Shown: positions 18,448-40,593, counted from the first letter of the stretch. The stretch is 64,000 nt of DNA from an uncultured Gammaproteobacteria bacterium (GCA_963827755.1 CAWHCQ010000013.1:64001-128000); one strand, 5' to 3'. Made by a program: numbers and translations. Notes: a model not told the origin generated them from the letters alone.

Positions 18448-19902
18448 ATGCTGATATTTGAACAATCCCGCGAGGGACGTACTGCGCCGGCACAGGCGCC
18501 GCTGACGTACGAAGATACGCCTGATATCCCGGCAAAGTTATTGCGCAAGCAGCCGCCGCTGCTGCCGGCCGTCTCGGAAATGCAGGCCGTGCGCCATTTC
18601 ACCCGGCTGTCGCAGAAGAATTTTGCCATCGATACGAATTTTTATCCGCTCGGTTCCTGCACCATGAAATACAACCCGCGCGCCTGCAACAAGCTGGCCA
18701 TGTTGCCGGGGTTTCTTGCGCGTCATCCGCTGGCGCCGGTATCCATGGGGCAGGGCTTTCTTGCCTGCATGTATGAATTGCAGGAGATGCTCAAGGATGT
18801 CACCGGCATGCCGGCCGTGTCACTGACGCCGGCCGCCGGTGCGCAGGGCGAGTTTACCGGGGTCGCGATGATTCGCGCCTACCATGACGCGAGGGGCGAC
18901 ATGGAACGCAATGAAATCCTGGTGCCGGATGCCGCGCATGGCACCAACCCGGCAACCGCGACCATGTGTGGTTACAAGGTGCATGAAATCCCGACGGACA
19001 AACAGGGCGATGTTGACCTCGATGAATTGAAAAAGGCGGTCGGTCCGAAGACGGCCGGTATCATGCTGACGAACCCCTCGACGCTGGGCGTGTTTGAGCG
19101 GCGTATCGAGGAAATTGCCGCCATCATTCACAAGGCCGGCGGACTGCTCTACTACGATGGCGCCAACCTGAATGCCATTCTTGGCAAGGTGCGGCCCGGT
19201 GACATGGGCTTCGATGTCATTCACATGAACCTGCACAAGACCTTCTCGACACCGCACGGCGGTGGCGGACCGGGTGCCGGTCCGGTCGGTGTCAGCAAGC
19301 GCCTCGAGCCTTTTCTGCCCCTGCCGATCGTCGGCTTCGACGGCGATGAATATTACTGGATCACCGAAGACGTCCGGCCGCAGAGTATCGGCCGCCTGTC
19401 GACCTTCATGGGTAATGCCGGTGTATTGATGCGTGCCTATGTCTATGCGCGCATGCTCGGGCGCGAGGGCATGCACCGGGTCGCGGACTTTGCCACCCTG
19501 AATGCCAATTACCTGATGGCACGGCTTGTCGATGCCGGTTTTGATGTCGCCTTTCCCGGGCGTCGTGCGACCCATGAATTTATTGTCACCCTGAAGCGTC
19601 AGCAAAAAGAGCTGGGAATAACGGCGATGGACTTTGCCAAGCGGCTGCTGGATTACAATATCCATGCGCCGACGACCTATTTCCCGATGCTGGTGCCTGA
19701 ATGCCTGCTGATCGAGCCGACCGAGACCGAGACAAAGGAAGAGCTGGATGCCTTTGTGGAGGCCATGATAAAAATCAAGGGTGAAGCGGAAACCACCCCG
19801 GAGTTGCTCAAGGAGGCCCCGCATACGCAGCCGGTTCGCCGGCTCGATGAAGTGCGTGCCGCGAAGCAGCTCGACCTGGTCTGGAATCCGTCGGCGGGAT
19901 GA
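18448..19902 (+). CDS. gcvPB: Glycine dehydrogenase subunit 2
   Basis: [34 protein letters not shown]. Confidence 0.96.
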
Positions 19903-32344: not shown

Positions 32345-33172
32345 TCAGCCAGGCGCTTTATGTCGCGTGCAGGGCAGTCTGAAATATTCCGGTTCCGTAT
32401 CGATGCGCAGCGCGGTTAACTCGCCGCCCCAAAGACAGGCGGTATCCGTCGGATAAATGCCGGGAGCATTGCACGGCCCCAGGGTCGACCAGTGTCCGAA
32501 GATGATCTTCATGTCCTTGCTGGCCCGATGCCCGATTTCAAACCATGGCAACAGTCTGGCCGGCTGACTGCCCGGCGGGCCCTTGTGTTTCAGTCCCAGT
32601 TTACCGTCAGTGTCGCAGTAACGCAGACGGGTAAAGCAATTGATAATAAAGCGCAGGCGATCATGGCCGGAAAGGTCAGCAGACCATCGATTGGGTTTGT
32701 TGCCGTACATGTGCACGATAAAGTCAGCGAGGGCGTCACCGCGCAAGACGTCCTCAACCTCGCGTGCACATTGCCGTGCCAGTTGAAGATCCCACTGTGG
32801 CGGCAGGCCCGCGTGGATCATGGTGAATCCCAGTGCCTCGTCATGATGCAGCAGGGGCTGCCGGCAGAGCCAGTCAGTCAGGTCATCGCGATCAGGTGCC
32901 TGCAGGATGGCGTCGAGCGTATGGTCATCGTTGTCCAGCGACAGTCCATGGGCGTGGGAGATCAGGTGCAGATCATGATTTCCGAGCACGGTGACAGCGG
33001 CATCGCCGAGCCCGCGAACGAAGCGCAGGGTCTCCAGGGATTTGGGGCCGCGGTTAACCAGGTCGCCTGCAAACCAGAGCCGGTCGCCGGCGGGGTCGAA
33101 GTCGATGAGTTCAAGCAGGGCCTGGAGTTCATCGAAGCAGCCCTGGATATCACCTATGGCATAAACGGCCAC
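32345..33172 (-). CDS. apaH: Symmetrical bis(5'-nucleosyl)-tetraphosphatase
   Basis: GDIQGC, GDLVNRGP, LGNHDLH, FGHWS, DTACLWGG. Confidence 0.96.
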   Translation of the reverse strand: MAVYAIGDIQGCFDELQALLELIDFDPAGDRLWFAGDLVNRGPKSLETLRFVRGLGDAAVTVLGNHDLHLISHAHGLSLDNDDHTLDAILQAPDRDDLTDWLCRQPLLHHDEALGFTMIHAGLPPQWDLQLARQCAREVEDVLRGDALADFIVHMYGNKPNRWSADLSGHDRLRFIINCFTRLRYCDTDGKLGLKHKGPPGSQPARLLPWFEIGHRASKDMKIIFGHWSTLGPCNAPGIYPTDTACLWGGELTALRIDTEPEYFRLPCTRHKAPG

Positions 33173-33187
33173 GCAGGACAGAACAGG

Positions 33188-33565
33188 CTAGTGAAGGGTA
33201 CGCGGGATCGCCAGTGTAAAGGCGGGTATTTCAGCGTCAAATTCGTCGCCATTGTCGGTCAGCATCTGGTAGCTGCCGCGCATGCTGCCGACCGGGGTCG
33301 CGATCATTGCACCGCTGGTGTACTGGAAACCTTCACCCGGCTTGAGGTGCGGTTGCTCACCGACAACACCTTCACCCTTTACTTCCTGGACGTTGCCGTT
33401 GGCATCCGTGATGACCCAGTGACGCGACAACAGCTGGGCGGGCACGCCACCCTCGTTGCGGATGGTAATGGTGTAGGAGAATACGTAGCGCTCGTTGTCA
33501 GGCTCTGACTGGCCTTCCATGTACTGGGTTTCTACTTCAACGGTGATGTTTTTATCGTTTTCCAT
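33188..33565 (-). CDS. apaG: ApaG protein
   Basis: YVFSYTITI, SRHWVITD, GEGVVGEQP, GSMRGSY. Confidence 0.95.
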   Translation of the reverse strand: MENDKNITVEVETQYMEGQSEPDNERYVFSYTITIRNEGGVPAQLLSRHWVITDANGNVQEVKGEGVVGEQPHLKPGEGFQYTSGAMIATPVGSMRGSYQMLTDNGDEFDAEIPAFTLAIPRTLH

Positions 33566-33793
33566 GGGTCTTGTTACAAATTCTCCTGGGTCTGACAGTA
33601 CTCTTTCCGGGCAGGGCGACAAAAGCCTTGCCGCTCCCGGCCGCTGCGTGCAGGTCATCATTATACAGGGTTCCCGGTTTGTATCTGCCGGGAGGGCGGG
33701 CAGGTTAATACTCGAAAAATCCATGTTGCCCCGCGACTCACGGGACGCTGCTCTTTTAAAAGGGGCCTCGCTACTGCAGCGGCGTTAATTTTA

Positions 33794-33806
33794 TAACACA
33801 CTGATT
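33794..33806 (-). promoter_or_regulatory. IHF-consensus-like site
   Basis: aatcagtgtgtta fits WATCARNNNNTTR; identical 13-mer at 44581-44593. Confidence 0.45.
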
Positions 33807-34002
33807 TAGAATATAAAAAATACATGAAGCAGGGACCAGCCCGGGTTTTTTCAGCGCGCAGCAGCGCACAGCGCCTGGCCGAAAATGTGAATCCCGTCAC
33901 GGAAATGAGTGGCTTTTTATTGCATTACTGGGTGTGGCTCCGTGACAGCAGTGGTTTTGGCAGCTGCTGATTTTATTCTGACATGTTACACAAGAGGTCG
34001 GG

Positions 34003-34314
34003 ATGTTCAGGCATAAGCGTTTCAAATACAGGTCAGATCGATTGCTGTTGCTCGTCCTGTTCGCAGGCCTGGCGGTATTTATGACAACCCTTTCGGCAGC
34101 GGATGATTCGTTCCTGTTGCATCCGGATATTGATGATCTGAAAGATGGTGATGTAATGCTTGCGCCAATCGGCCATCGGGGTGCCGGCGTGCGCATGTTG
34201 TTCAAATCGCCGGCCGGGATTCCGGCGGCGTCTTATTCAGTGAATAATAGTGGTATGTGGCAAGTAGACGCAGATGCAGCGGCAGTGCATCTATCCGTGG
34301 TCATCCCCTGGTAG
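34003..34314 (+). CDS. Small hypothetical exported/membrane protein
   Basis: gagg RBS, basic N-terminus plus hydrophobic stretch, ends VVIPW; stops 2 bp from the rsmA stop. Confidence 0.55.
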   Translation: MFRHKRFKYRSDRLLLLVLFAGLAVFMTTLSAADDSFLLHPDIDDLKDGDVMLAPIGHRGAGVRMLFKSPAGIPAASYSVNNSGMWQVDADAAAVHLSVVIPW

Positions 34315-34316
34315 GA

Positions 34317-35105
34317 CTAGCCCGCCTGTTTGGCGCAGGCCAGGTTGGCAAGCGCGGCAAAATCCTTTAACGCCAGCATTTCAGCGCGTAGCGAAGGATC
34401 GATTCCCGCCTTCATTATTTCATCGCTATCGAGTATGTCGCGCAGGGCATTGCGCAGGGTTTTCCGGCGTTGCGAGAATGCCTGACGCACCAGTTTGGTG
34501 AATACCTTTTCATTGTCTACGTTTACCGGCGGCTGATCAAAGGGCTCCAGCCGGACAAACGCCGACTCAACGCGCGGTGGTGGATTGAATGCGCCAGCAC
34601 CGATAGCAAACAGTGCTGTAACCCGGCAACGATACTGCAGCATGACTGACAGACGACCATACTGCTTCGACCCCGGGCCTGCAGCCATTCTTGCCACCAC
34701 TTCTTTCTGCAGCATGAAATGCATGTCCCTGATGCAATCATGCTGTTCCAGCAAATGGAACAGTATCGGCGTCGATATATTGTAGGGCAGGTTGCCGACG
34801 ATGCGCAGCGGATGTGTGTCAGCCAGCTGGCAAAAGTCAAAACGCAGTGCATCGACATTATGCACGCTCAGCCTGCCGACGTTGCGGCATCGGGCCTTCA
34901 GCGGCTCGATCAAATCCCGGTCGATTTCAATAACAGTGAGTGCGCCGGCTGCCTCCAGCAGGGGCAGGGTGATGGCGCCCTGGCCCGGGCCGATTTCAAT
35001 CAGGTTCTCATTCCCTTGTGGCCGGATAGCCGTGATGATTCTTTCGATAACGCCGGGATCGTGCAGGAAGTTCTGGCCAAACCTTTTCCTTGGACGGTGA
35101 TTCAA
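34317..35105 (-). CDS. rsmA: 16S rRNA adenine dimethyltransferase (KsgA), TTG start
   Basis: [47 protein letters not shown]. Confidence 0.96.
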   Translation of the reverse strand: MNHRPRKRFGQNFLHDPGVIERIITAIRPQGNENLIEIGPGQGAITLPLLEAAGALTVIEIDRDLIEPLKARCRNVGRLSVHNVDALRFDFCQLADTHPLRIVGNLPYNISTPILFHLLEQHDCIRDMHFMLQKEVVARMAAGPGSKQYGRLSVMLQYRCRVTALFAIGAGAFNPPPRVESAFVRLEPFDQPPVNVDNEKVFTKLVRQAFSQRRKTLRNALRDILDSDEIMKAGIDPSLRAEMLALKDFAALANLACAKQAG

Positions 35106-35463
35106 GGGGTTATCCTGGTATTTTTCATTGTTGACAGTCAGTTATAAATCGTCAGAATGGATTTGCTCACGCAAACCACCCGGTTGGAACCAGAGTGGGT
35201 GCGCTTCCAACGCGCATCGATTTTTGCAGCGGTAGAAAACTATTCGAGCTCAATGATATCACTACGAATAATGCAGCACTGGTTGGCATCTGATAACCTC
35301 GGCTAAACGCCTTATCACAAGGATGCATTATGTTGTAGTTGCCAGCTGAAGGTATGCACGAAACTGCCTATTATGAGACCAGAACAAACTTGTTACTCCG
35401 AACGGCGCGTACATGATTAATTTTCTGGCTATTTCAGCATATCTGTCAAACGGTTGCTAGCAA

Positions 35464-37449
35464 ATGCCTGCAGATACCAGCATGCAAAAATGCAAGTTAG
35501 CGGATCGTCATGTCGCAGATTCTTCCGCAGTGATGCCTTTGCCTGATGCCGGGCATACCTGGTTTGCCCGACTACGGGAATGGAAGCTTGTCTGGCTGGG
35601 TGGATTGATAGGTGTCGGTTTTTATGTGATCGATGCCATCGTTGATGTGTACCTGTTTGACGAAGGTAATCTGGTCGATCAGCTATTCCGTCCCACACCG
35701 TTTGAATGGACAATGCGACTGACGGTGCTCACTATTGCCCTGCTGTTCAGTACCTACGCGCAGACCATGCTCCATCGTGCCCAGGCAGCCATGCAAGAGG
35801 CCCGGATATCCAGGAAATTTCTCGACTCGATTGTGGAAAATCTCCCCGGCATGATCTTCATTAAAGAAGCCGGGCAGCTGCGTTTTGCAAAGATCAATCG
35901 AGCGGCCGAGACAGTCATGGGTTTCAGCCGTAGCGAGATGATTGGAAAAAGTGACGCTGATTTCTTCCCGCCCGAACAGGCTGATTTTTTTAACACCGCG
36001 GACCGGAATGTGCTTCAATCCGGTGAAGTACTCGATATCCCTGAAGAGGTGATCGATACAGGGAGCAATGGCCGGCGGATCCTGCACACCAGAAAAGTAC
36101 CCATGTATGATGAGAATGGCAACCCGGCTTTTCTACTTGGTATTTCTGAAGACATAACCGAGACAATACAGGCGCAGCAGGAACTGGCGGAGGAGAAGCG
36201 TCGCGCCGAACGCTACCTGGATATCTCGGAAGCCATCATAGTGGGTCTGGACACTAATGAGCGAATCAGCGTGATCAACCGCCACGGTTGTAAAGCTCTT
36301 GGTCTCTCCGAAAAGGAACTGCTTGGCCGCAACTGGTTTGATATCGCGCTTCCGGAGACTGGAAAGCACCACGGGCATACTGTGTACAAGAAAATAATGT
36401 CAGGTGAAATCGAGTTGGCGGAATACAATGACAACGACATAATTACAGCGACGGGCGAAGTCCGTCACATCGCCTGGCACAATACCGCGCAGTACGGCCC
36501 CGCAGGTGAGATCACCGGCGTTCTGTCATCCGGTCACGACATCACGGATCGCAAACATACCGAGGAGCAACTGCGCCTCGCCGGAACGGTCTTCGAGTCC
36601 ACCAGTCAGGCCGTGGTGGTTACTGACCACGACAACCATATTATATCCGTCAATCCCGCATTCACCCTGATAACGGAATATACACTGGAGGAAGTCCTCG
36701 GAAAGAATCCCTCATTCCTGAGATCCAGCCGCCATGACGAGGCTTTTTACCGTAATTTATGGGTCATAGTCACAACGGACGGGCAATGGAAAGGTGAAAT
36801 CTGGGACCGCCGCAAAAGCGGGGAGGCATTCCCGTCGTGGCAATCGATCAGCGCGGTTTATGACAACAGTGGCGAGGTGACGAACTTCGTTTCGGTATTC
36901 TCTGACATCACACCTATTAAAGAACATCAGAGTAACCTGGACTTTCTGGCTCACCATGACCCTCTGACCGGGTTGCCAAACAGGCTCATGCTCGATGATC
37001 GCATCGCTCATGCGATGCAGCGCTGTATCAGGGACCACAGGGAACTTGCCGTTCTGTTTCTTGACCTCGACGATTTCAAAATTGTGAATGACACTTATGG
37101 TCATCACATCGGAGATCAACTTCTGCAGACCCTGGCGATGCGGCTGCAGTCATTATTAAGGCAGGAAGACACTATTGCCCGTATGGGCGGCGATGAGTTT
37201 CTGGTCCTTATGGAATCATTTGAGACCATAGACGATGTTGAACTGGTCGCAAAAAAGATAATTCACGAGGTTTCGAAGCCAGTTGAGATAAACGGTCATC
37301 AAGTGGAGGTCGGTGCCAGTATAGGTATAGCCATTGGTCCAACCGACGGTGCCAACGTTTCATCCCTGATAAAAGCGGCCGACCTGGCCATGTACCGTGC
37401 AAAAGACCAGGGGCGAAACCAGTATATCTTCAGGTTGCAGCAGGCATAG
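35464..37449 (+). CDS. Membrane-anchored PAS-PAS-PAS diguanylate cyclase (start uncertain)
   Basis: Two TM helices, three PAS/PAC units ending DIT, HDPLTGLPNR, RQED I-site and GGDEF. Confidence 0.92.
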   Translation: MPADTSMQKCKLADRHVADSSAVMPLPDAGHTWFARLREWKLVWLGGLIGVGFYVIDAIVDVYLFDEGNLVDQLFRPTPFEWTMRLTVLTIALLFSTYAQTMLHRAQAAMQEARISRKFLDSIVENLPGMIFIKEAGQLRFAKINRAAETVMGFSRSEMIGKSDADFFPPEQADFFNTADRNVLQSGEVLDIPEEVIDTGSNGRRILHTRKVPMYDENGNPAFLLGISEDITETIQAQQELAEEKRRAERYLDISEAIIVGLDTNERISVINRHGCKALGLSEKELLGRNWFDIALPETGKHHGHTVYKKIMSGEIELAEYNDNDIITATGEVRHIAWHNTAQYGPAGEITGVLSSGHDITDRKHTEEQLRLAGTVFESTSQAVVVTDHDNHIISVNPAFTLITEYTLEEVLGKNPSFLRSSRHDEAFYRNLWVIVTTDGQWKGEIWDRRKSGEAFPSWQSISAVYDNSGEVTNFVSVFSDITPIKEHQSNLDFLAHHDPLTGLPNRLMLDDRIAHAMQRCIRDHRELAVLFLDLDDFKIVNDTYGHHIGDQLLQTLAMRLQSLLRQEDTIARMGGDEFLVLMESFETIDDVELVAKKIIHEVSKPVEINGHQVEVGASIGIAIGPTDGANVSSLIKAADLAMYRAKDQGRNQYIFRLQQA

Positions 37450-37542
37450 AAACACCAGACATCCCCGGTGATCAGGGCTATACCAGGCCCGCCGCTGATG
37501 TCATATGCATCCTTCAAGTCACCCCCCGGAGGAGTTAGCGGT

Positions 37543-37711
37543 ACCCGCGCTTGCCGCCATTCTTCCCACGACCTCATTCTGCAGCATGAAATGCATGTCC
37601 CCGATGCAATCATGCTGTCCCTTGTGGCCGGATAGCCGTGATGATTCTTTCGATAACACCGGGATCGTGCAGGAAGTTCTGACCGAACCTTTTCCTGGGA
37701 CGGTGATTCAA
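37543..37711 (-). pseudogene. rsmA: rsmA 5' relic with ~265-bp internal deletion
   Basis: 37619-37711 matches 35013-35105 (4 mismatches in 93 bp), fused to a copy of ~34680-34745 ([22 protein letters not shown]). Confidence 0.9.
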
Positions 37712-38276
37712 TGGGTTGCCTATTTTTCTTATTAGGAATTTCAGTTAGTTATAAAATGTCGAAGTGGATATATTCATTAAAATCGTACAGTTAGAACCAT
37801 AGCGGGTGCGATTACAAGTCGCATCGATATTCGCATCGGCAGAAAATGATGTGAATCGACTGCCTGATAAATGATATCACTTGTGCGTACTGGCTTGACC
37901 TGAAAACCTGCGTCAGGAAATTAGCGTGAGCCTGATAAAAGGTATTTAACAGAAAGGATTGTTGAAATAACCTGATCAATTATGTCAGCGAACATCAAGC
38001 GCGGAAACTTCAAACGAGACCGACAGAATTCAGCAGGTTTTTTACATCAATCACGGCGAAAAAACGGGGCGAAAGGCTGTTCATTAACCGTGGACTTGAG
38101 GGGAAAGGGCTCTTATTATTCTACGGTGATTTTTAATGATTACCGCCCCCTGACATCCCTGGCTCGTAGCGAGCTCCGCAGGATATTGACCTTCTGTTTA
38201 GAGAGCACGTTAATGGTTGCATCAGTCAAAGCAGGAACAATCCCGCGAACATTATTCGTAGCCCGGGAGAGAGCAG

Positions 38277-39401
38277 ATGTCGAATCCAGGTAAAAAGCAT
38301 ATTCTGAGTAATTTAATGCGCATATCTGAAAACACGGCGCCAGGTTTTTTCCCCAGGCTTATGGGGGTACTCAAGGGCATCGCCAGAACCTTCGGTTTAT
38401 CTGAAAGAAGCAGAGTAATTGACCCACCGATGGAACCTGACACCCGCGCAGAGCGACCAGCTTTTTCCGGGCGTTGTATTGTGTTCTCCGATACCGATAA
38501 CTGCATGAACTCGCTCAAGAGTACGTTGCGTTTCGCCGGAATCCTCAACGAGAAAGACGAGCTCACAGACAATCTGGAAGGGATCAATATCTTTCATACC
38601 GGCGACATGATTGACAAGAAAAATCCTGACCCTTCTGTTGTGGAATATTGGCAACTTCTTCAGCAAGACGCCCTCGCAAAGGGATGTCATGTCAAGCTCA
38701 TAGTGGGCAATCATGAGCAGGAAGTCTGGCAAAAGATCATGACAGGTGAAAAATACGGAATGCGAGCAGAACAGGTCCATTGGCTCAACGAGTTCATTGA
38801 GAGTCTGGATTTATTCTACGTCGCCGGTACTATCCTTTTTATACATGGTTATCCGACAGTCGAATTCTTGCAGACATTGCTGCACTTTAAGCAGGTAACG
38901 GGAAAAGACCTGAATTGTTTTAATACTGATCATTATAAAAAAGCATTCATATCTGTTAGCGCCATGAGGCAATATGCCTATGTTAGAGAAAATCGGCGAA
39001 TAAACTATTTGCTCTATGATGTGGCGGATGCGAGCCATTACTACAAGAAACAGGGACGAGTGGTTGGTGCTGTTCTTGCGCAGTTGAAGATCGATATTGT
39101 TGTACACGGACACAGGCCACAGCGTTCCGGCGTACAGGTAGACTACGAGTTTGGCAAGTGGATCTCAAAGGTCAGAATGATAGGAAACGATACCATGGTG
39201 AGAAGTAGAGGAATCGGCGCGACCGTCATCAGGGTGGCACCAGGTGGGGCTGTAGATATAGATTTCATTAATACGAAAACAGCATCTGAAAAACTGCGCA
39301 GAAAGGTACAGAAAGACCTCAGGGAGCCACTTGTTTCTTCCTGCGCGACCCGCTTTACCAGCCCCGAAGACGCAGATATCAAATCCGCTGCGCAAGGGTA
39401 G
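38277..39401 (+). CDS. Calcineurin-like metallophosphoesterase
   Basis: FSDTD, GDMIDK, GNHE, IHG, HGH motifs in canonical order. Confidence 0.8.
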   Translation: MSNPGKKHILSNLMRISENTAPGFFPRLMGVLKGIARTFGLSERSRVIDPPMEPDTRAERPAFSGRCIVFSDTDNCMNSLKSTLRFAGILNEKDELTDNLEGINIFHTGDMIDKKNPDPSVVEYWQLLQQDALAKGCHVKLIVGNHEQEVWQKIMTGEKYGMRAEQVHWLNEFIESLDLFYVAGTILFIHGYPTVEFLQTLLHFKQVTGKDLNCFNTDHYKKAFISVSAMRQYAYVRENRRINYLLYDVADASHYYKKQGRVVGAVLAQLKIDIVVHGHRPQRSGVQVDYEFGKWISKVRMIGNDTMVRSRGIGATVIRVAPGGAVDIDFINTKTASEKLRRKVQKDLREPLVSSCATRFTSPEDADIKSAAQG

Positions 39402-39448
39402 CGGGGACTGCAGAAGGTGGCATCTCTGGATTTATATATGCATATAAC

Positions 39449-39520
39449 TTATTGAGTAACATGGTGAATCAGAACCGGGGAGCGGTCCTGGCCAAAGCGC
39501 TTGCGGGGGATATGTGCCAT
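39449..39520 (-). pseudogene. rsmA: Truncated rsmA start (11 codons) downstream of pdxA
   Basis: Reads MAHIPRKRFGQ then unrelated DRSPVLIHHVTQ-stop, at the position where rsmA normally follows pdxA. Confidence 0.75.
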
Positions 39521-39588
39521 GAAGGTATTCCGGTTTATCCATCAAACCGGTGCAAGGCAGGCTGGGCGGGTATACGGAATGGTGCGCG

Positions 39589-40593
39589 TTATTGCCGCTG
39601 CACCATCTCCACTGCATAGCGGATCGCCATCAGCAGGCTGCCGCTGTCGCCCCGGCCGCTGCCGGCGAGTTCCAGTGCCGTGCCGTGGTCGACGGAAGTG
39701 CGGATGACGGGCAAGCCGAGCGTGATGTTGACGGCGCGGCCAAAGCCGCTGTACTTCAGCACCGGTAATCCCTGGTCATGGTACATGGCCAGTATGGCAT
39801 CGCTGTTGGCGATATTGGCGGCACTGAAAAGCGTATCTGCCGGTAGCGGGCCTTCAAGGGCCATGCCCTCAAGGCGCAGTGATTCGAGTACGGGGATGAG
39901 GGTGTCGATTTCCTCATGGCCGAGGTGGCCGCCTTCGCCGGCGTGCGGGTTCAGTCCGCACACCAGAATGCGCGGCTCGCCGATACCGAAGCGGGTCTGC
40001 AGCCCCTTGTGCAATACCCGGATCACGCGCGTCAGGCTGTCCTTTGTTATGCAGGCGCTGACCTGCGACAGCGGTACATGGGTCGTGGCAAGGGCGACAC
40101 GCAGCTCATCGGTTGCCAGCAGCATGACTACATCGCGTGTCCGGGTCGCCGCTGCCAGGTACTCGGTATGACCGCTAAAGGGGATTCCGGCATCGTTGAT
40201 GACGCCCTTGTGTACCGGGCCTGTCACCAGCGCATCGAAGTTGCCGCACAGGCAGCCGCGAATGGCCTGGTCGAGAGTGTCAAGGACATAGCGGGCGTTG
40301 CCGGGATTTAGTCGACCGACCTGAACGGCTGTTTGCAGCGCAACCGGCAGTATGCAGGTCTCACCCGGGGTGGATCGTGCGGGTTTGGCCGGGTCAAACA
40401 GACGATACTGAAAGGGGATTTCAAGCTGCGCGGCCCGTTCTTCGAGTAGCGCCGGGTCACAGATTGCCACCAGCTCGGTGTTCAGTGCCTGCTGTGCAAG
40501 CGCCAGGCACAGGTCCGGCCCGATACCGGCCGGTTCACCGGGGGTCAGTGCAATACGTGCAATCGAGTCAGACAATATAATCGGGCGCGGCAA
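39589..40593 (-). CDS. pdxA: 4-hydroxythreonine-4-phosphate dehydrogenase (start may be 40575)
   Basis: [42 protein letters not shown]. Confidence 0.96.

Follow-up and report, generated by a model that had tools for sequence, protein, structure and literature searches.

The start of rsmA in an uncultured Gammaproteobacteria bacterium is interrupted by an array of gene modules. The array lies in a 64-kb stretch of DNA (GCA_963827755.1 CAWHCQ010000013.1:64001-128000; below, the window, whose numbering is used throughout) that belongs to a 2.85-Mb assembly of 52 contigs, 92% complete with 5.4% contamination. On the minus strand, pdxA is followed by a 69-nt spacer, a native rsmA start, module A, module B, the intact rsmA, apaG and apaH (Table 1). 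Each module holds a single cargo gene oriented opposite to rsmA, and the G+C content is 0.42–0.52 across 35000-39400 as against 0.58–0.64 in pdxA and beyond. An initial annotation of the window had described three rsmA 5′ ends separated by two single-cargo modules of AT-richer DNA, with cargo opposite to rsmA and no recombinase encoded in the modules. These features are all present where it placed them, and the only trace of a recombinase gene found in the modules comes from an IS91-family insertion sequence (IS), of which 106 nt survive as a dead remnant. On the evidence set out below, the array is probably a fossil tandem of two integrase-less remnants, left by a family of site-specific integrative elements that targets the 5′ end of rsmA.

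Table 1. Features between pdxA and the end of rsmA in the window
Feature	Position	Strand	Evidence or remark
pdxA, upstream host gene, normally adjoining rsmA	39589-40593	-	ORF 334 aa, PdxA E 1e-106
Native rsmA start, 11 codons MAHIPRKRFGQ, host half of attL	39488-39520	-	ATG at 39520
Truncated left arm (P′) of element	39414-39487	-	Begins directly after GGCCAG
Metallophosphoesterase, cargo of module A, 374 aa	38277-39401	+	Metallophos E 4e-10
Leader c2, right arm (P) of module A	37712-37846	-	P-arm start motif at 37840
Pseudo-rsmA, former attR-rsmA junction	37544-37711	-	Codons 1-31 fused to 119-145
PAS-PAS-PAS-GGDEF diguanylate cyclase, cargo of module B, 661 aa	35464-37449	+	GGDEF E 1e-52, three PAS stretches
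Dead IS91-family remnant	35244-35349	+	106 nt, left end + 7 transposase codons
Leader c3, right arm (P) ahead of intact rsmA	35106-35239	-	Homology to other leaders
Functional rsmA, 262 aa	34317-35105	-	RrnaAD E 3e-69, full domain match

The intact rsmA opens with TTG, 9–12 nt downstream of an AGGA motif, and its first bases (35073-35105) comprise TTG and 10 codons ending in GGCCAG. The open reading frame (ORF) from this TTG is unbroken, and rsmA is thereby restored as a reading frame predicted to encode 262 amino acids (aa). A repeat finder detects a 100-nt repeat that covers the first 94 nt of the gene and gives the second copy, in which 37711-37618 is 95% identical to 35105-35012. Directly behind codon 31, this copy is fused to a piece (37621-37544) that corresponds to codons 119–145 of the intact gene with 69/78 identical positions; it has an internal deletion of ~262 nt as well as a truncation. 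The frame opened by the native start departs from rsmA after the last of its 11 codons and reaches a stop after 23 codons.

The intact and the pseudo-rsmA are each preceded by a leader, c3 and c2, respectively. Leader and start together (35012-35239 and 37618-37846) are 80% identical over 234 nt (BLAST, E 1.5e-51), and BLAST finds no further leader copy in the 2.85-Mb assembly. The leaders are only ~72–80% alike, whereas the rsmA bases behind them (bases 34–94 of the pseudogene and the intact copy) agree at 60 of 61 positions. Leader c2 is 70–80% identical to leaders of other genomes. The initial annotation had drawn the leader of the intact gene as 35106-35303: the part up to 35232 (~128 nt) is indeed shared by the family, and the rest is IS remnant. 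This remnant, whose frame stops at codon 3, is identical at 95 of 106 positions to DNA beside an intact Y2_Tnp/Zn_Tnp_IS91 gene in G013, one of the relatives examined below. Intact IS91-family copies occupy the same leader-adjoining spot in G013 and G012, and their transposase gene reads away from rsmA.

The leader may carry a promoter for the rebuilt gene. Judged by eye, the leader-family consensus contains TTGACG and AATGAT at a spacing of 17 nt, to which the window copy is one match short. A sigma-70-like site on the plus strand of leader c3 (35131-35158; TTGACA, 16 nt, CAGAAT, 10/12 matches) points outward to the cyclase gene. No known RNA family corresponds to the leader, as Rfam gives no match within 33000-40000 at E values up to 1. 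We also considered a XerCD/dif-like site in the leader, but comparison by eye with the dif consensus gave no convincing likeness.

rsmA starts in related genomes

We compared rsmA neighbourhoods in 24 other genomes of the same genus and in outgroups. Seven genus genomes have a native-type start, which opens with ATG and reads M-x-H-T-PRKRFGQ. Twelve, including the window, have an element-type start, which lies behind a leader, opens with TTG and reads L-(N/S/T)-H-R-PRKRFGQ; six genus genomes fall outside this count, with the rsmA 5′ end at a contig end or not found. RsmA proteins of the two types differ only at residues 2–4. The 11 codons next to pdxA in the window are of the native type, as the same kind of start (ATG, M-x-H-T/I-PRKRFGQ) opens the functional rsmA of G019 and of six other genus genomes.

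The element-type loci share a common breakpoint. In all 12, the leader and the first 33 nt of rsmA are conserved and the sequence becomes species-specific directly after GGCCAG. Compared with G014, leader and core are 76–88% identical in 11 of 12 comparisons (69% in the exception, G012), and identity is 69–73% over the 174 nt of rsmA coding sequence that follow. For the window, identity to G014 is 81% in leader c3 and core and 72% in the rsmA coding sequence adjoining them, and the corresponding values for G061, a genome of another genus, are 86% and 70%.

An empty site is present in G019, whose rsmA is one of the two closest to that of the window (84% identical) and which is the closest relative with an assembled junction. 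Here pdxA lies 16 nt from a native-type rsmA; pdxA is also directly upstream of rsmA in five outgroup loci, and G000 and G012 have occupied sites. Native starts, element-type starts and the empty G019 site have in common a 9-bp block, TTYGGCCAG (codons 9–11), and differ on both of its flanks.

The pdxA–rsmA junction varies even without an element, because three native-type genomes (G016, G021 and G017; L042, L045 and L040) carry a conserved 156-aa membrane-protein gene between the two genes, to which G017 adds 7 kb more. In G022, pdxA is found in two overlapping pieces (contig C6, 58587-59571; residues 3–224 and 220–329), reflecting a frameshift or an assembly error.

A recurring two-armed unit and its cargo

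Leader DNA is widespread in the genus, matching 25 of the 37 genomes searched; in 19 of them the match extends past the coding part, and about 15 have matches at several places (two to nine). Five copies lie between pdxA and rsmA in G048, in which a single 967-kb contig holds both genes at a distance of 75 kb. Between three and eight copies each are found in G051, G022 and G023, spread over contigs that end in or near repeats, with pdxA, the leader copies and rsmA on separate contigs; their pdxA–rsmA intervals would be roughly 100–130 kb if the contigs were joined in the inferred order. In G014, a remnant of an element-type start lies 6.5 kb upstream of rsmA. The genome records that bear leaders are metagenome-assembled and mostly titled uncultured Gammaproteobacteria.

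The junctions inside these arrays have a consistent anatomy. Each comprises a leader and the 33-nt start, and directly after GGCCAG a second shared arm of ~100–130 nt that takes the place of rsmA. This arm follows GGCCAG at 11 of 11 internal junctions in G014, G022, G023, G048 and G051 and at the native-start junction of the window, and BLAST finds it at nine of those 11 and at the window junction. In the window, ~50–75 of its ~100–130 nt remain and are 92% identical over 49 nt to the left arm of G022. A consensus of 54 distinct copies shows that the unit is conserved over ~258 nt with sharp edges. Judged by its sequence, the recurring unit is an attachment (att) site of attP-like make-up, ~260–300 nt long, in which an rsmA-start mimic is framed by a right arm (the leader) and a left arm. 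Such a pattern is what tandem integrations of circles with one attP each leave behind.

The same unit is found in environmental DNA. Public metagenome contigs were scanned with a junction pattern of 22 nt that was derived from the element-type side, native-start junctions thus lying outside the sample. At least 120 contigs matched, and 80 listed loci (L141-L220) were analysed. Nearly all of these carry the full unit and a few have truncated leaders; the left arms of 37 metagenome loci match 39414-39496 of the window. The pattern had no match in viral contigs, where relatives of the integrase described below reach only 28–32% identity, and no link to phages was found. In 27 of 38 distinct metagenome cases, the closest ORF on the upstream side of the leader points away from rsmA; this is a crude count that includes related loci.

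The cargo is diverse. Genes adjoining leaders encode a nuclease, a PLD-VTT protein, NhaA, a DUF2254 protein, a reverse transcriptase, a CHAD protein and an IS91 transposase, and 125 cluster representatives from the metagenome loci contain 192 Pfam families, none of them dominant. Modules range from 1.4 to 31 kb, are often multi-gene and contain remnants of integrases of their own.

An integrase family linked to the unit

Clustering of the ORFs of the 80 metagenome loci revealed a recurrent tyrosine recombinase of 350 aa with a PF00589 domain and a SAM-like N-terminal domain. It is present in 12 of the 80 listed loci: L188 and L170 have it at full length, L155 has it in two pieces that start ~290 nt after the junction, and nine more loci have a C-terminal remnant. 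Remnants also occur in the arrays of G022, G051 and G003. At least 50 clusters of full-length relatives at 70–91% identity are found among metagenome proteins; the next relative is at 49%, followed by proteins below 30%. The integrase reaches no NCBIfam cut-off, its best scores being 88–89 bits against a required 220, with likeness to Xer proteins and integron integrases.

A search of the order identified a complete 10.5-kb element in G061 with an intact 350-aa integrase, encoded on the minus strand of L278 at 18464-19516. The gene order is surA, pdxA, the native start MSHTPRKRFGQ, left arm, an inserted IS, integrase, a RelE-like/HTH pair, TOTE primase and helicase, two ISs, a metallophosphoesterase fragment, leader (90% identical to G014), TTG-rsmA, apaG and apaH. 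The integrase thus lies just inside the left arm of an element bounded by the native start on one side and a rebuilt rsmA on the other. The RelE-like/HTH pair directly follows the integrase in G061, L188 and L155. The TOTE primase of G061 (contig C41; L278 and L279) is fused to a ResIII helicase, with the frame broken into a 504-aa primase–ResIII part and a 283-aa helicase C-terminal part, and IS630- and ISL3-type transposase genes lie downstream.

Other integrases of the window's genome were considered as candidates and set aside: the XerC/D-like proteins, two AP2-type copies (contigs C14 and C15) and one on contig C26 are only 24–34% identical to the array-borne genes. Scans of G048, G051, G022, G023 and G000 with PF00589 and PF04986 placed most IS91-type ISs that have an accessory integrase outside the arrays.

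Origin of the array and its relation to known systems

These data suggest the following model. A circular element would carry an attP-like site of ~260–300 nt, composed, as judged from G061 and the metagenome contigs, of a ~128-nt right arm, the 33-nt rsmA-start mimic and a ~100–130-nt left arm. The 350-aa tyrosine recombinase encoded just inside the left arm would recombine this site with rsmA within TTYGGCCAG; strand exchange must lie in this block, because it is the only identity common to host and element sites, whose flanks differ. The native 11 codons would be left stranded beside pdxA and joined to the left arm, which would supply a stop codon, and the rest of rsmA would gain the element's AGGA ribosome-binding site, TTG start and first 11 codons. 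The protein would thereby change only at residues 2–4. Repeated integration into existing junctions would build arrays with complete attP-like internal units, whose integrase genes would then decay.

Module A can be placed in this model with the help of the metagenome locus L174, which contains an integrase C-terminal remnant, a metallophosphoesterase gene and a leader. The window's metallophosphoesterase gene is 81% identical to that of L174 at the nucleotide level (and 82% to a copy on contig C18 of G051), and the homology starts exactly where the window's truncated arm ends, the integrase remnant of L174 standing in place of the cut arm. Because the match begins at the arm end, module A would derive from an element that was stripped of the integrase and of the greater part of the left arm. 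We tested the metallophosphoesterase as a core gene of the element family; the fragment beside the G061 leader is not homologous to the window's gene, which is therefore cargo.

Module B has a less direct history. No close copy of its cyclase was found among the fetched loci. Leader c2 was once the working junction, because real rsmA bases follow it, and module B would be a later arrival behind what was then a working attR–rsmA junction, bringing with it the other leader lineage together with an IS91-family element, since deleted. Module B may have come from an element that carried donor rsmA DNA from an aberrant excision and entered the core of c2, it may have been brought in by homologous recombination between the locus and incoming DNA, or an IS91-family element may have assisted its capture. 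All three routes fit the data and cannot be told apart.

The initial annotation had proposed that related elements hit rsmA at least twice, each time replacing its start. Repeated hits by related elements are borne out by the common breakpoint, the empty G019 site and the leader and integrase of G061, and two independent hits in the window are plausible given leaders that differ far more than the rsmA bases behind them. The junction between modules A and B is an attR followed by decayed rsmA and not a clean att site. A fixed arrangement in relatives, a leader that never occurs with a recombinase or a misassembly would have told against the proposal. Instead, relatives have no fixed arrangement (G019 is empty, and unrelated cargo lies behind the same leader elsewhere), the leader accompanies an intact integrase in G061, L188 and L170 and integrase remnants in further arrays, and arrays lie on long single contigs of relatives, as in G048.

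Several observations weigh against this account or limit it. All compared genomes are metagenome-assembled. In the window, tblastn with the integrase at E values up to 10 returned only noise from the modules, with no remnant, and none was found in the 92%-complete genome; because of this, the window array is a decayed and probably immobile relic. The five-unit array of G048 has no PF00589 match, and the genome is without an integrase homologue, so that recombination by the 350-aa integrase is deduced from linkage only. The internal junction of the window is not attP-like but holds rsmA codons 12–31 and 119–145 behind leader c2, which indicates a second event of another kind than mere core integration. 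A consensus promoter scan flagged no minus-strand sigma-70-like promoter in the window leader. In G061, attL and attR differ by one base within the 9-bp block (GGACAG and GGCCAG), reflecting either a later mutation or exchange at the right end of the block. On contig C13 of G051 (~290-304 kb; L083 and L084), two att-like units, one of them truncated, surround a module of 13 kb that is not at rsmA and may be an array fragment that was translocated.

We also searched four public sediment runs (X1-X4) for Logan contigs, all short, at a likeness of 90. One contig of X1 joins 39487 to 35073 and one of X3 joins 39487 to 37683; both are leader–core–left-arm joints that may stem from arrays in other genomes. 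In X1, X3 and X4, single contigs run from leader c3 straight into leader c2 without module B, and may likewise be from other genomes. These joints are a weak hint that the modules occur in other arrangements; read as excision they are not firm, at 90% likeness and with short contigs, and this too counts against the model. No listed contig of the four runs spans the whole stretch, and some bins in X4 are without cover, which says nothing either way; differences in contig depth between bins cannot rank genes. Runs X2-X4 contain many variant contigs of the metallophosphoesterase gene (38300-39400) and of both leaders, several of which leave the window exactly at 39402, the gene's stop; the gene therefore occurs in other contexts there.

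Integrase-less modules might instead still be mobile cassettes that are moved in trans, as a large-format integron-like or cis-mobilizable set, which we regard as unlikely. Each module would hold a complete attP-like unit or have one in common with its neighbour, and the integrase would be supplied from elsewhere in the cell or by an incoming element. Internal units in integrase-less arrays are 84–95% identical to the query, and cargo blocks recur beside arms in different genomes at 80–95% aa identity, as against 72–75% for the rsmA proteins (for example, modules of G048 compared with G023 and G051). The abundance of full-length integrases in the environment, the predominantly outward upstream ORFs and, weakly, the joints seen for window modules in the sediment runs point the same way. 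On the other hand, the window's left arm is cut to ~50–75 nt, its internal junction is no att unit and its genome yielded no integrase; several internal units in G048 and the metagenome loci are truncated in a manner that resembles decay, and shared modules could spread by homologous recombination in flanking repeats. An extension of the same idea, to which we likewise assign a low probability, is that the rsmA start serves as a gene-capture platform for this clade of sediment Gammaproteobacteria, with the family's integrase excising, shuffling and re-inserting, in trans, modules that keep both arms of the site but have no integrase gene, and the leader acting as a two-way promoter for rsmA and the outward-facing cargo. 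In function such a platform would parallel an integron in a larger format, with a lambda-type site in the start of an essential gene as its basis, and would explain islands of at least 75 kb.

IS91-type elements mobilise DNA adjoining one of their ends, and an element of this family could have made module B and the duplicated rsmA piece by rolling-circle one-ended transposition, in which an IS beside the leader moved leader and rsmA DNA elsewhere; alternatively, deletions mediated by the IS could have reshaped the locus. In the window the remnant abuts leader c3 at the spot where G013 and G012 have intact copies, and the internal junction holds rsmA DNA beyond the core; at the C13 locus of G051, which is not at rsmA, an IS91-family IS of another kind, which has an accessory tyrosine recombinase, lies ~1.2 kb past a unit. 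We consider this origin unlikely. The IS is missing from nine of the 12 aligned genus leader loci, the codon 31/119 breakpoint does not lie right after a GAAC/GTTC tetranucleotide, the preferred target of such elements, and att units alone explain the array pattern in the genus. A partial rsmA (residues 117–258) on contig C12 of G023 (~1900-2400; L043) is separated from an IS91-family transposase gene by several hundred bases of near-pure G; it was rejected as evidence of IS91 capture, as it borders poly-G runs and is most likely an assembly artefact. That no mobile element was involved at all, the locus having arisen through ordinary local duplication and decay of rsmA or as an assembly artefact, is highly improbable, even though the assembly is in 52 contigs with 5.4% contamination and no sediment contig bridges the stretch. 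The two leaders are neither recent duplicates nor collapsible repeats, because they are only ~72–80% alike and neither element-type start is the same as the native one. Moreover, different cargo is enclosed by the units in 19 of 37 genomes and in all 80 listed metagenome loci (from at least 120 matching contigs), also on long single contigs, and G061 has a complete integrase-bearing element.

On the far side of rsmA, the gap to apaG is ~750 nt in the window (33566-34316) and below 100 nt in outgroups. It holds a 103-aa plus-strand ORF (34003-34314) with a hydrophobic N terminus and no Pfam match. The stretch appears native to the window lineage, because it is weakly conserved (67–69%) in G012 and G019. 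The longest apaG ORF (33188-33724, minus strand) encodes 178 aa, whereas the ApaG domain and the genes of relatives fit a start near 33565 (125 aa), and the N-terminal extension is probably not translated.

The proposed elements operate on a principle known from the SXT/R391 family, whose tyrosine integrase inserts at the 5′ end of prfC and whose DNA provides a new 5′ coding end and expression signals, keeping the gene functional and allowing tandem arrays. Both use a tyrosine integrase, a 5′-end target and a rebuilt gene start. The rsmA elements differ in that the target is codons 9–11 of rsmA, the integrase is outside curated families, complete elements are small (10.5 kb in G061) with no conjugation genes seen, and the hosts are uncultured sediment Gammaproteobacteria. 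As a family they have the features of 5′-end-targeting islands of tyrosine recombinases: an integrase gene within the element and adjoining an att site, a shared core, empty and occupied sites, and a restored gene.

Islands associated with dusA (see 10.1101/2021.06.18.448947) insert into the 5′ part of a conserved gene, restore its frame, are mostly non-conjugative and carry variable cargo. They resemble the rsmA elements in 5′-end insertion, frame restoration and variable cargo, and differ in target gene and apparently in integrase clade; the rsmA arrays reach at least 75 kb with at least five att units. Cis-mobilizable elements (CIMEs) and tandem accretion of integrative conjugative or mobilizable elements in streptococci yield integrase-less, att-bounded segments through accretion and deletion, which adjoin integrase-bearing elements or descend from them (PMC5704250, PMC7563491). 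The rsmA arrays resemble these in the accretion of integrase-less att-bounded segments. The window array itself is a decayed relic and not a CIME, as no integrase-bearing partner accompanies it, one of its arms is truncated and the junction between its modules is no att site; the arrays of G048 and G051 fit better. The integrase of GIsul2 is reported, from experiments, to mobilise an ISCR-related CR2-sul2 unit in trans (PMC9376610). The likeness lies in an IS91-like neighbour and an integrase-less unit that has the site; the site is different, and in the rsmA arrays trans action is no more than a possibility.

Chromosomal integrons are alike in their mixed cargo arrays, in a recurring site at a fixed place and in many recombinase-less modules. 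They differ in the intI-type gene beside the insertion point: no integrase gene lies beside rsmA or pdxA in the window, and the G048 array is likewise without one by PF00589. The site is a two-armed unit of 260–300 nt in a host gene and not an attC, and the modules contain remnants of integrases of their own.

No family targeting rsmA (ksgA) was found in the literature searched, which did not cover supplementary target tables (TIGER/Islander) or subscription journals, where rsmA could be listed. As far as that literature goes, we rate the element family as previously undescribed. Elements that insert at the 5′ end of a housekeeping gene and rebuild it form a small set, which hereby gains a new target gene (rsmA codons 9–11) and a tight integrase clade that is also new. 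In this clade the pdxA–rsmA junction is a major site of gene flux, at which contigs break, and the cargo spans defence and conflict systems, toxin–antitoxin pairs, transporters and signalling proteins. A compact, defined site and an integrase that is abundant in public metagenomes could serve as a tool for site-specific integration. For annotation, the short rsmA fragments and TTG-started rsmA genes of these genomes are to be read as the scars and products of integration and not as errors.

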